From assembly GCF_053078305.1 (NCBI RefSeq), contig NZ_CP166879.1: a stretch of 64,000 nucleotides of DNA; one strand, written 5' to 3'. Below, piece after piece: positions 1,838-8,991 of this stretch (within the stretch, counting starts at the first letter, position 1; each line of letters begins with the position of its first letter). Below the pieces are notes generated by a model, which ran no database searches, was not told the DNA's origin, and saw only the letters and a list, made by a program, of their open reading frames with translations. The translations under genes and the position numbers were made by a program.

Positions 1838-4120
<2,283 letters not shown>

Positions 4121-4162
4121 TTAGATTTGACTGAAATCGTACAGTAAAAAGCGTACAATAAA

Positions 4163-4188
4163 GGCTCCACGAAAGTGGGGCCTTTTTT
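4163..4188 (+). terminator. Rho-independent terminator after pflB
   Basis: GC hairpin ggctccac-gaaa-gtggggcc followed by T-run. Confidence 0.6.
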
Positions 4189-4311
4189 AGCACGAGAGCC
4201 TTTTTTGTCAGCTATCTATACTTTAAGGTGACTGCCAAAACAGACTCGACGTAGCCTTCGAGCTGCGCACCAACACGGCCTCAGATGGGCCACATCTGGA
4301 GAAACACCGCA

Positions 4312-5052
4312 ATGTCAGTTATTGGTCGCATTCACTCCTTTGAATCCTGTGGAACCGTAGACGGCCCAGGTATTCGCTTTATCACCTTTTTCCAGGGCTG
4401 CCTGATGCGCTGCCTGTATTGTCATAACCGCGACACCTGGGACACGCATGGCGGTAAAGAAGTTACCGTTGAAGATTTGATGAAGGAAGTGGTGACCTAT
4501 CGCCACTTTATGAACGCTTCCGGCGGCGGCGTTACCGCATCCGGCGGTGAAGCAATCCTGCAAGCTGAGTTTGTTCGTGACTGGTTCCGCGCCTGTAAAA
4601 AAGAAGGCATTCATACCTGTCTGGATACCAACGGTTTTGTTCGTCGTTACGATCCGGTGATTGATGAACTGCTGGAAGTAACCGACCTGGTAATGCTCGA
4701 TCTCAAACAGATGAACGACGAGATCCACCAAAATCTGGTTGGAGTTTCCAACCACCGCACGCTGGAGTTCGCTAAATATCTGGCGAACAAAAATGTGAAG
4801 GTGTGGATCCGCTACGTTGTTGTCCCAGGCTGGTCTGACGATGACGATTCAGCGCATCGCCTCGGTGAATTTACCCGTGATATGGGTAACGTTGAGAAAA
4901 TCGAACTTCTCCCCTACCACGAACTGGGCAAACACAAATGGGTGGCGATGGGTGAAGAATACAAACTCGATGGTGTTAAACCACCGAAGAAAGAAACTAT
5001 GGAACGCGTGAAAGGCATTCTTGAGCAGTACGGTCATAAGGTAATGTTCTAA
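4312..5052 (+). CDS. pflA: Pyruvate formate-lyase activating enzyme (radical SAM)
   Basis: 246 aa from [23 protein letters not shown]; CxxxCxxC-type radical SAM cysteine cluster ([10 protein letters not shown]); track ORF starts 9 codons upstream. Confidence 0.92.
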
Positions 5053-5062
5053 TTTCCCCGTA

Positions 5063-5096
5063 AAGCGGCAACTTTATTGAGTTGCCGCTTTTTTAT
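5063..5096 (+). terminator. Rho-independent terminator after pflA
   Basis: Hairpin aagcggcaac...gttgccgctt followed by TTTTTT. Confidence 0.6.
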
Positions 5097-5261
5097 TCCG
5101 CGCTGCATAAATAATTCAGAGCTCTATTTCTCACGCCCTTACAGCACAGCTTCCAAATGTATTACCCAAACCGCCAGTATATGTCCTGCGGCTTGCGCGC
5201 ATTTCTCGATTATGTAAAAACGGGTCAGATCTGCCAGAGTCAGCATCACCGACCACAATAA

Positions 5262-6692
5262 TTATTTACTATTCGCTTTACGCGCCAGCAGCGGGAATAT
5301 CAGTCCTAATCCTACCAGCACAAACGGCGTTGCAACATTCAGCGCCAACTGGAAGGTCCACTCTGCAGTGAAGGCTTCCATTTTCGGGAAGATCCCCGTC
5401 AAACAGGCAAAGGCGGTAAAGGCAAAACACCAAATCCCGACGGTCATTGCCAGAGGCTTATTACGAATAAAGACATATTCTGGTTTATATTTCTGCGCCA
5501 GGCGAACGACTGCAATAAATGCAACAAATACCCATAAATAACGCAGCGGCATCACTACCGAGTTAAGATTCAACAGCCATTTATAGAGATTGTTCATATC
5601 ACCGATGCCGAGAGTCGGCAGCATAATCAGAATTGCCACCAGCACCAGGGTCAGAAAATAGCCATTAACGGGCGTACCAGAAGCGTTGGTACGACATAAA
5701 CTGGCTGGAATATATTTGCTGTCAGCATCACCTAATAGCACTTTAAGCGGGGCATCAATCGAGAATACCAGCGCAGCTACTTGTCCCAGGGTATTCGCAA
5801 TGGCGTAAATCACCATTAAAGTATTACCCATGTTGTAATACTCGCCCAGCTTCTGAAAAGCGTAATATTGACCGTTAGTCATTAAGTCATCCGGGATATT
5901 ACGCGAGTCAAACATCATCCCCATCGCCAGTGAGCCCAGAATGGCACAAACCGCAACCATCACCGCCAAGCATAGCATCCCTTTTGGAAATTCTTTTCCT
6001 GGGTTGCGCGTTTGATTAACGTAAGGAGAAATCTTCTCTGCTCCGCCAACCGCGAAAACCAGCATTGAAATAGTGGTAATGTAGGTAAAGTCGATATGAG
6101 GAATGAACGTTTCCCAGGTAATGTTTGTGGTCGCAATATGCACTTCAGTAATCGCAGGCGCGGTTACCGCCATCGCCACATACAGGAGCGACATAACAAA
6201 CATCGCAATCCCTGCCACAGAACCGACGATTTTCAGCGATTTCATACCGCGTGAAGCAACCCACATAAAGAAGATAAACAGCACCAGCGTTAACCCCTGT
6301 AACGCTACGACTGAATATTCTTTGATTAGCGAACCGTCGCCTTTCATCGCCCAACCGAGCGCAATCAGTATTGCCTGGGGTTTTTGTGCCAGATAGGGAA
6401 TATGCACCACCCAGTAGGTCCACGCGGCGAGGTAAGCCAGTCCGGGTCCCATCGTGTGTTTAATCCAAGTACTGACCCCGCCTTTCCCATCTTTGAAGGT
6501 CGAGCCTAACTGACCAACAATTAGCGCATAAGGTGTGAAATAGAGCGCAAAGATAAACACCCATGAAAAAACAACCACCAGCCCCTGGTTGGCATAGTTA
6601 TTAACAACGTTGCCAAAACCCCAGACAGTGATAAAAGACATCAGCGCAATGTTGTACCATCGCAGCTGTTTTTCCTGAACATTCCCAGCCAT
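5262..6692 (-). CDS. ycaM: Putative amino-acid/polyamine (APC-family) transporter
   Basis: Polytopic membrane protein; likely start MAGNVQEKQLRWYNIALMSF (476 aa); track ORF extends 64 codons upstream. Confidence 0.75.
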   Translation of the reverse strand: MAGNVQEKQLRWYNIALMSFITVWGFGNVVNNYANQGLVVVFSWVFIFALYFTPYALIVGQLGSTFKDGKGGVSTWIKHTMGPGLAYLAAWTYWVVHIPYLAQKPQAILIALGWAMKGDGSLIKEYSVVALQGLTLVLFIFFMWVASRGMKSLKIVGSVAGIAMFVMSLLYVAMAVTAPAITEVHIATTNITWETFIPHIDFTYITTISMLVFAVGGAEKISPYVNQTRNPGKEFPKGMLCLAVMVAVCAILGSLAMGMMFDSRNIPDDLMTNGQYYAFQKLGEYYNMGNTLMVIYAIANTLGQVAALVFSIDAPLKVLLGDADSKYIPASLCRTNASGTPVNGYFLTLVLVAILIMLPTLGIGDMNNLYKWLLNLNSVVMPLRYLWVFVAFIAVVRLAQKYKPEYVFIRNKPLAMTVGIWCFAFTAFACLTGIFPKMEAFTAEWTFQLALNVATPFVLVGLGLIFPLLARKANSK

Positions 6693-6901
6693 AGACAAAT
6701 CCTTCGCCAAAATTAAAGGGGCATCTGTAAAACGAGGGATTATGCGCGGCAAATAAGAAGTGCGGAAATAGCGAAATGCAAAATTATAACCTGCTGCACA
6801 TTTTATTTTTAAACGAATAAAATTTGGAAAAAAGCAAGTCAGATAGAAGAAACAAAAAAGCAGAGTGTGAAACAGTAAGTTCACACTCTGCTTGAATTCA
6901 T

Positions 6902-8050
6902 TTACACGTGAGCAACGGGTTTCGGCGTATGACCGGCGTTGCGAAGCAGCATCAGCAAATAGATAAACGATACGCTGGCGATCATGATAAACAATAAATT
7001 ATCGGAGAAATTCTGCATTAGCATAGCGGTAAATGACGGGCCAAGCAGACTTCCCACGGTATAGCTCAACAGTAAGGCCTGGTTCATCGCCACCAGTTGA
7101 TGATGTTCAACTTTCTCGCAAGCCCAGGCCATCGCCACCGGATATAGCGTAAAGCCAGCGGCACCGAGGATGAATAACGCTGGGGCCATCGCCGCCTGGC
7201 TAAGCATCGCGATACTGCCGAGAATGACGACAAAGACCTGAACACGCAACACCAGCAGTCGACCAAACTTATCCGCCAGACGTCCAATCGGCCATTGTCC
7301 GAGGATACCCGCACTGACCAGTACCGCCATCCAGAAACCAATGCTGGCATTGCTCACCCCTTTGTGATTGAGGTACAACGGCATCAGGCCATATAGAGAT
7401 CCCAGAACGATTCCTGAGATAATGCAGCCATTCACGCCAAGCCGCGCCTGACGGAGTTTTAGCATTGACGTAATTGACGTCGAATCATGGTTTTCAGCCT
7501 GCTGATTCAGGACACGCGTAAACAACAGCGGTAAGATCCCTGCCAACGTCAAACCTGTAACCCACGGCAATACGCTCATCAGCTCGGTTGAGACTTTGCT
7601 GACCAGTAACTGGCCTAAAAACGTTCCCACGTAATAAACCATCATATACGCAGCAAGCAAACGCCCACGGTTACGTGACGTCCCACTGCACATCAGCGCG
7701 CTCTCAACGACTACCCAAATCATGGCACAGCCGACGCCCGCGACAAAACGCCACGCCAACCAGCTCCAGAAACCAATCATCAGGCCAAGGCCGGCACAGC
7801 CAGCGGCAAAAATGAAGGAGGCCAGATAATAGCTGCGGTTAAAGCCAATGCGTTTAATGACATACCCTGTCAGCAATGTACCGACAAGGTTGCCGGTAAA
7901 ATAGGATGAGCTGACAACGCCTACCTGCCATGTGGACATGTGTTCCTGGGCGAGCCAAAGCGGCACGAGTGTATTTAACACCGCGATCGCCAGAGTCAAC
8001 AAAAGCAGGCCAGACAGCAAAAGCATGACAGGCCGGGTATACGTGGACAT
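6902..8050 (-). CDS. ycaD: MFS transporter YcaD
   Basis: 382-aa 12-TM-like protein; synteny between ycaM and ycaC. Confidence 0.8.
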
Positions 8051-8364
8051 GAATTAAAACCGTGAGGAAGTTCAAATTTCATGCGCATCATGCCACCGCC
8101 AAAAACATTGTCAATGGGTGAAAATACGCGCATATCGCAGCGGCGGTATTATCGATTTATATTACTCATTCATAACGCTAATACTGAAGAGATGATTAAT
8201 CTCATCTGATTGTTTTTATTGATCTAACACAAATTTCATACGCTTCGTTCAGTCGAAAAATTTCATGGTCACAGCAAACTCATATTTCCCGTCTATGCTT
8301 TCAGAGCAATGCATCGCGTCTGACCGATTTCAGACGTACCACTGACTCTCGAAAGGAGAAGAGG

Positions 8365-8991
8365 ATGACCAAACCGTATGTTCGTCTTGATAAAAATGAT
8401 GCTGCCGTTTTGCTTGTTGATCACCAGGCTGGTTTACTTTCCCTTGTACGGGATATCGAACCCGATAAGTTTAAAAATAACGTGCTGGCGCTGGGTGACC
8501 TGGCTAAGTATTTCAACTTACCAACTATTCTTACCACCAGTTTTGAAACCGGTCCTAACGGCCCATTAGTTCCAGAACTGAAAGCACAATTCCCCGATGC
8601 ACCTTACATTGCTCGCCCGGGCAATATTAATGCCTGGGATAACGAAGATTTTGTAAAAGCAGTCAAAGCGACAGGTAAAAAACAGTTAATTATTGCCGGT
8701 GTGGTAACCGAAGTTTGCGTGGCATTCCCGGCGCTTTCAGCCATTGAAGAGGGGTTTGATGTGTTTGTCGTGACTGACGCATCAGGGACCTTTAATGAAA
8801 TTACCCGGCATTCGGCGTGGGATCGCATGTCGCAAGCTGGTGCGCAATTGATGACATGGTTCGGCGTGGCTTGCGAGCTACACCGTGACTGGCGTAATGA
8901 TATTGAAGGACTGGCGACGTTGTTCTCTAACCACATTCCTGATTATCGTAATTTGATGACCAGTTATGACACGTTAACGAAGCAGAAATAA
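8365..8991 (+). CDS. ycaC: Isochorismatase-family hydrolase YcaC
   Basis: 208 aa, MTKPYVRLDKNDAAVLLVDHQAGL...; cysteine-hydrolase fold motifs; RBS aaggagaag upstream. Confidence 0.85.
   Translation: MTKPYVRLDKNDAAVLLVDHQAGLLSLVRDIEPDKFKNNVLALGDLAKYFNLPTILTTSFETGPNGPLVPELKAQFPDAPYIARPGNINAWDNEDFVKAVKATGKKQLIIAGVVTEVCVAFPALSAIEEGFDVFVVTDASGTFNEITRHSAWDRMSQAGAQLMTWFGVACELHRDWRNDIEGLATLFSNHIPDYRNLMTSYDTLTKQK

Follow-up and report, generated by a model that had tools for sequence, protein, structure and literature searches.

What became of the two genes that, in Escherichia coli K-12, lie between pflA and ycaM? In the genome considered here (NCBI RefSeq assembly GCF_053078305.1, contig NZ_CP166879.1), of which we analysed one stretch of 64,000 nucleotides, hereafter the window, the genes run in the order focA, pflB (1838-4120), pflA on the plus strand, a short gap, ycaM on the minus strand, ycaD (6902-8050, minus strand) and ycaC. 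Both genes that flank the gap are intact. The first, pflA, encodes the pyruvate formate-lyase activating enzyme (WP_000111043.1 in the annotation of strain ET350, and collinear with K-12 pflA) and occupies 4312-5052, with its stop codon at 5050-5052. The second, ycaM, so named in the annotation of both ET350 and O157:H7, encodes an APC-family permease in which Pfam recognizes AA_permease_2 and AA_permease; it occupies 5262-6692, with its stop codon at 5262-5264. The DNA belongs to E. coli, and over 4700-5700 it does not differ from that of ET350 (100% identity). The gap between the two genes had been put at about 210 bp in a preliminary description of this DNA, and exact coordinates (5053-5261) give 209 bp. 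It had also been described as non-coding; an intact gene is indeed absent from it, the list of open reading frames containing only chance ORFs of 41-46 aa.

The corresponding order in K-12 MG1655 (NC_000913.3) is ycaD, ycaM, ycaN (948660-949568), ycaK (949668-950258) and pflA, so the preliminary description was right that ycaK and ycaN intervene in the reference, where pflA does not stand directly beside ycaM. The stop codons of ycaM and ycaN abut in K-12, with zero intergenic bases. Upon pairwise alignment of the window to the K-12 pflA-ycaM interval, the flanks are collinear over 4900-5108 and 5149-5500, and between them a segment of 40 bp (5109-5148) replaces 1,511 bp of K-12 (NC_000913.3 948773-950283). 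The replaced segment comprises all 591 bp of ycaK together with the 25 bp following it, the 99 bp that separate ycaK from the divergent ycaN, and the first 796 of the 909 bp of ycaN; of the latter gene, codons 1-265 are gone, as is the base that opens codon 266. Taken as a whole, the K-12 region ycaM-ycaN-ycaK-pflA (b0899-b0902) resembles that of the window closely, with pflA, its terminator, ycaM and ycaD collinear and 96-100% identical; the difference is that the window lacks 948773-950283 and holds 40 unrelated bp instead.

Read from left to right, the 209 bp thus resolve into a small number of parts. The intrinsic terminator of pflA comes first (5062-5099, plus strand); it was called by a terminator scan and has a 13-bp stem (5062-5091) with a T-run behind it. 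All three alleles of the locus that are described below have this terminator, its sequence being identical in K-12 and in an APEC strain without ycaK, ycaN and ycaM. The 17 nt at 5092-5108 are the final K-12-collinear bases, the alignment ending at 5108, and the left breakpoint so defined lies, in K-12 terms, 25 bp beyond the stop codon of ycaK. Then comes the junction filler, AAATAATTCAGAGCTCTATTTCTCACGCCCTTACAGCACA, which occupies the 40 bp of 5109-5148 and is absent from the K-12 locus. The remainder, 5149-5261 on the plus strand, is the 3' end of ycaN, comprising 2 nt, the last 36 codons and the stop, and equivalent to K-12 948660-948772.

This remnant is identical to the 3' end of K-12 ycaN at 109/113 nt (96.5%). 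Translation of 5151-5261 on the plus strand gives FQMYYPNRQYMSCGLRAFLDYVKTGQICQSQHHRPQ followed by the stop, which corresponds to YcaN residues 267-302 with 34/36 identical and two substitutions, and so bears out the guess in the preliminary description that a leftover C-terminus might be found here. The reading frame of ycaN has been kept, as have its position and orientation relative to ycaM, with the stop codon abutting that of ycaM just as in K-12. The intact K-12 protein features an HTH_1 domain at residues 7-63 and a LysR_substrate domain at 91-290 (Pfam); for the 36-residue remnant alone, zero Pfam families are matched. It possesses neither the HTH domain nor a complete LysR substrate-binding domain, nor a start codon or promoter of its own, both the 99 bp of divergent promoter region and the leading 796 bp of ycaN falling within the missing 1,511 bp. 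To judge from its sequence, then, the remnant is a dead 3' fragment, incapable of expression as a regulator. PGAP/RefSeq reaches the same view of the same bases, annotating in ET350, in O157:H7 and in further strains an incomplete pseudogene of a LysR family transcriptional regulator that is missing its N-terminus; the pseudogenes NMD37_RS15245 (ET350) and GL980_RS18470 (O157:H7) are the same feature, equivalent to 5151-5261, and do not differ from it. Since RefSeq already carries this annotation, the finding is to that extent known, and a literature search on the pflA-ycaM polymorphism returned nothing specific.

We consider it highly probable, at roughly 90%, that the gap is the scar of one old 1.5-kb deletion in an ancestral pflA-ycaK-ycaN-ycaM-ycaD arrangement. 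A single event would have taken out 1,511 bp, and with them ycaK, the divergent promoter region and most of ycaN, leaving a junction with 40 bp of filler; what stayed would be non-coding, consisting of the pflA terminator, the filler and the 113-bp 3' fragment of ycaN. The structure of the gap, the homologies of its parts, the frequency of the junction among genomes and its occurrence in E. fergusonii are direct observations; the direction of the change and its having been a single event are things that we infer. The preliminary description raised both a deletion in this genome and an insertion in K-12; the former is favoured by the ycaN remnant together with the presence of ycaK-ycaN at the same locus in other lineages. 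The proposal of a deletion holds in that sequence has been lost relative to K-12; it needs amending in that the loss is not clean, 40 bp sitting at the junction. A clean deletion would leave no such filler, and the event may therefore have had more than one step.

The origin of these 40 bp was sought widely. No source was found in the replaced K-12 segment (both strands), in 12 kb of the K-12 locus or in the 64-kb window, where alignment scores equalled those of shuffled sequence, and the same was true of the Salmonella interval and of the ycaK-ycaN loci of Pseudocitrobacter, of a divergent enterobacterial contig (L092) and of eight other genera. Within E. coli, a blastn search (E <= 10) finds the filler in 1,023 genomes, once per genome and essentially nowhere but at the pflA-ycaM junction, the matches amounting to 1,023 chromosomal places and one plasmid place. 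A common junction marked by such a filler provides a clean marker of shared descent for the deleted allele.

How widespread is the deleted allele? Among 5,426 complete E. coli genomes, in which each class was counted by its own separate search (the classes sum to 5,411), 1,023 (19%), many O157:H7 among them, have the deletion junction and the 40-bp filler. About 3,341 keep ycaK-ycaN as in K-12, and in 1,047 (~19%), e.g. APEC O1:K1:H7, pflA stands directly beside ycaD, without ycaK, ycaN or ycaM. An identical junction in 1,023 independent complete genomes establishes the structural difference as real rather than artefactual. By the same count the deletion is a major allele, and the suggestion that it might be strain-specific has to be given up, the allele being shared by 19% of complete E. 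coli genomes and by Escherichia fergusonii as well. In the course of these searches, 21 separate places in one genome were seen to match part of the 1-kb query 4700-5700, and 12 matching places lay on plasmids; in either case duplications or assembly artefacts are possible.

The third allele, examined in APEC O1:K1:H7 strain E16002, offers a comparison. Here, too, a deletion at the same locus begins just past the pflA terminator, and here, too, the junction contains unexplained filler, in this instance the 8 bp GTGCACAG. It differs in that ycaM has also been lost and no ycaN remnant is left, the terminators of pflA and ycaD standing back to back. The segment concerned (8354-8449 of the E16002 locus, L003) is equivalent to window 5096-6868, with only GTGCACAG between the two terminators.

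The age of the deletion is addressed by E. fergusonii. Its pflA-ycaM interval (CP040805.1) corresponds base for base in its layout to that of the window, with the terminator, the 17 nt, the 40-bp filler and the ycaN remnant adding up to the same 209 bp, and the junction with filler is found in four E. fergusonii-type assemblies in all (CP040805.1 and three similar). The two intervals differ in sequence, with ~10-11% divergence across filler and remnant; the filler differs at 4/40 bases, and the E. fergusonii remnant has decayed, having acquired a premature stop and lost the original one, although tblastn still picks it up (E 1e-14). Alleles and phylogroups of E. coli differ by 1-1.5% in the flanks. 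That E. fergusonii has the same junction at ~10% divergence, as against 1-1.5% among E. coli, argues that the deletion is old.

The allele is distributed, however, at odds with the species tree, since the genes are deleted in E. fergusonii and in part of E. coli and intact in K-12-like E. coli; this calls for either a long-lived polymorphism or transfer by homologous recombination. The remnant in E. coli differs from K-12 ycaN at 4/113 positions and from the E. fergusonii remnant at ~13/113, and, being nearer to K-12 ycaN, it requires recombination between alleles if the deletion predates the species split. Recombination has indeed acted here, as judged by a sharp fall in identity between E. 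coli and E. fergusonii at ~5585, inside ycaM: from pflA to this point the two are 90-99% identical, and thereafter only 70-85%, which is the level seen against Salmonella. From ~5585 onward (the 5' part of ycaM, ycaD and ycaC) one lineage seems to carry a replaced segment. YcaD of E. fergusonii shares only 89% identity with that of E. coli, no more than Citrobacter YcaD does, and E. fergusonii is without dmsABC between ycaC and serS.

Such a boundary raises the alternative that the deletion is recent within E. coli and that the allele was spread by homologous recombination across species, in either direction, rather than by inheritance from a common ancestor. We regard this as a possibility to be taken seriously, albeit on balance doubtful. 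The step from 90-99% to 70-85% identity would mark the edge of a transferred segment inside ycaM, and the ~10-11% divergence of filler and remnant is less than neutral interspecies divergence by our own rough expectation. Against this, it may just as well be the 70-85% block, beyond the boundary, that was replaced, and a divergence of 10% is still many times the 1-1.5% among E. coli phylogroups, so that any transfer would itself be old. This alternative differs from an old deletion inherited in common only in how the allele spread, and not in what the interval is.

Another alternative is that the short pflA-ycaM order is ancestral, with K-12-like strains having gained ycaK-ycaN by horizontal insertion and the window preserving the state before insertion. 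Salmonella might be cited in its favour, as its order is pflA-[290 bp]-ycaM-ycaD, an interval without ycaK or ycaN and with no detectable remnant. Among representative genomes of 100,044 species, the YcaN of K-12 has no counterpart outside E. coli that exceeds 74% identity, and the matches in the protein database fall from ~99% (E. coli/Shigella) to 84-85% and then to 79% (Pseudocitrobacter); in neither the species-representative genomes nor the protein database is an intact ycaN seen in Escherichia other than E. coli/Shigella. The pair is, moreover, scattered across genera, and its GC contents of 42.8% and 46.6% are below those of its neighbours. The remnant, on the other hand, speaks strongly for the opposite direction. 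The 113 bp in the window agree with the 3' end of ycaN at 96.5% of positions and keep both its frame and its stop; a gene end truncated in this way cannot have preceded an intact LysR gene, which an insertion would have had to rebuild from it. Both outer junctions are common to the intact and deleted alleles, and, further, the pair occupies the same locus elsewhere: in Pseudocitrobacter corydidari ycaK-ycaN lies between pflA and ycaD, and contig L092 is arranged as in K-12 (ycaK-ycaN-ycaM), its DNA being 75-87% identical to K-12. These two lineages identify the K-12 order as the older state, and they led us to reject a recent, E. coli-specific insertion of ycaK-ycaN. More broadly, ycaK and ycaN form a divergent pair ~100 bp apart in eleven loci, mostly of other Enterobacterales genera (one is labelled Caballeronia). 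A horizontal gain by K-12-like strains is thus very improbable; if the pair was instead gained earlier, ahead of the split between E. coli and E. fergusonii, the window would still be read as a deletion. The locus is in any case a changeable one: Pseudocitrobacter corydidari carries a second LysR regulator and a choloylglycine-hydrolase-family (CBAH) gene between pflA and ycaK (4217-6278 of its locus, L091) and is without ycaM, and the pflA-ycaD gap is variable across Enterobacteriaceae.

The least probable of the alternatives, that the interval is itself a functional element (a small protein, a small RNA or a regulator binding site, with the filler and its palindrome AGAGCTCT under selection), can draw on the minus-strand RNA of the whole interval folding better than shuffled sequence (z -3.96) and on the retention of the filler in both E. 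coli and E. fergusonii, but the folding signal appears to arise largely from two terminator-type hairpins, the palindrome is broken to AGGGCTCT in E. fergusonii and in E. coli strain 23CRST013 and its lack of conservation makes a function for the filler unlikely, the filler diverges about as fast as the adjoining pseudogene, promoter-like sites occur at shuffled-sequence frequency, the ORFs are only the chance ones of 41-46 aa, and an Rfam family match is absent. On this last point, a search of Rfam 15 over the interval gave nothing at the gathering score; the STnc250 model reached 17.7 bits as against the 42 needed (E 0.61) on the pflA terminator hairpin, a weak match that reflects no more than this hairpin.

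The ycaN remnant may nonetheless have acquired a use of a humbler kind. Within it lies, on the minus strand, a putative terminator of ycaM (5214-5254), recognized by predicted folding as a hairpin (5223-5254) followed by CGUUUUUAC. On the ycaM-sense strand the hairpin starts 8 nt past the ycaM stop, and a hairpin with a U-run is found directly 3' of the ycaM stop in every lineage compared. Its predicted energy is -13.8 kcal/mol in the window, which is weak (z -1.3) and was not called by a simple terminator scan, and -11.1 kcal/mol in K-12. The strongest version is that of E. fergusonii, with a perfect 13-bp stem at -24 kcal/mol (z -4.6), and this one is called a terminator by the simple scan. 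In K-12, RNA-seq describes ycaM-ycaN as overlapping convergent transcripts (PMC12288877). On these predictions the remnant now probably serves as the ycaM 3' UTR and terminator, a role that may explain where the deletion stops.

One might go further and see in the stem of E. fergusonii the product of compensatory hairpin evolution. This idea is weakened by the observation that, of seven differences versus E. coli, two or three at most belong to E. fergusonii alone, contig L092 with its intact ycaN having several of them (AGAAC, CGA). The fullest form of the proposal would be that the remnant has long been kept for the ycaM terminator and 3' UTR and, no longer under coding constraint, reshaped into a stronger one in E. 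fergusonii, with the intact and deleted alleles constituting a long-lived or recombination-exchanged polymorphism across the E. coli / E. fergusonii boundary, perhaps because some niches favour possession of the YcaN/YcaK pair and others its absence. We offer this as speculation that is rather unlikely to be correct.

Several observations on the neighbouring genes may be set down in their own right. Two clusters of differences are seen in pflB relative to both K-12 and the APEC strain: 8 differences in 16 bp at 2113-2128, altering INKQLEKIVG, and 4 differences in 6 bp at 2429-2434, changing KDKL to KDKY. O157:H7 has the bases of the window at every site of both clusters, and E. fergusonii has most of the first. 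These clusters look, from the sequences, like small patches of recombination or gene conversion. The pflB-pflA intergenic region (window 4121-4311) may be an integration hotspot, as it contains foreign genes in other genomes; sopD is located there in Salmonella (L086 10452-11411), and a phage integrase lies directly upstream of pflA in E. coli FDAARGOS_1281 (L094 29-1024), with pflA being called longer, at 258-265 aa, in both.

As to ycaM, the nearest relatives of its product outside the E. coli/Salmonella cluster, among the matches listed, are permeases of Paenibacillus, Brevibacillus and Clostridium (63-71% identity), and not of other Proteobacteria, which hints at an old transfer between phyla. 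A recent import of ycaM from Firmicutes (Paenibacillus and Clostridium, 65-70%) was considered and rejected; the YcaM proteins of Salmonella and E. fergusonii are 93-95% identical to that of E. coli and fall in the same 90% cluster, so the gene is evidently resident in these enterobacteria. No protein labelled E. albertii occurs among the YcaM cluster matches listed.

What, then, does a cell with the deleted allele go without? The lost products are YcaK, a flavodoxin-like NAD(P)H oxidoreductase, and YcaN, a LysR-type regulator, and on the account of an old deletion such a cell would have lost both members of a regulator-enzyme pair. The antisense transcription that in K-12 runs from ycaN into ycaM would disappear as well. 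Deletion of ycaN in K-12 alters the expression of ycaC, ycaD and focA, and the mutant is negative for formate utilization in a carbon-source phenotype array (PMC9068703). Given that YcaN and YcaK are absent from lineages with the deletion allele, regulatory results obtained for YcaN in K-12 are not transferable to them.

The significance of the locus is slight beyond bookkeeping, the allele being common, old and already annotated. It does nonetheless place YcaN and YcaK among the accessory, rather than the core, genes of E. coli, and it provides a small example of how the remnant of a gene survives by overlapping the 3' end of its convergent neighbour.
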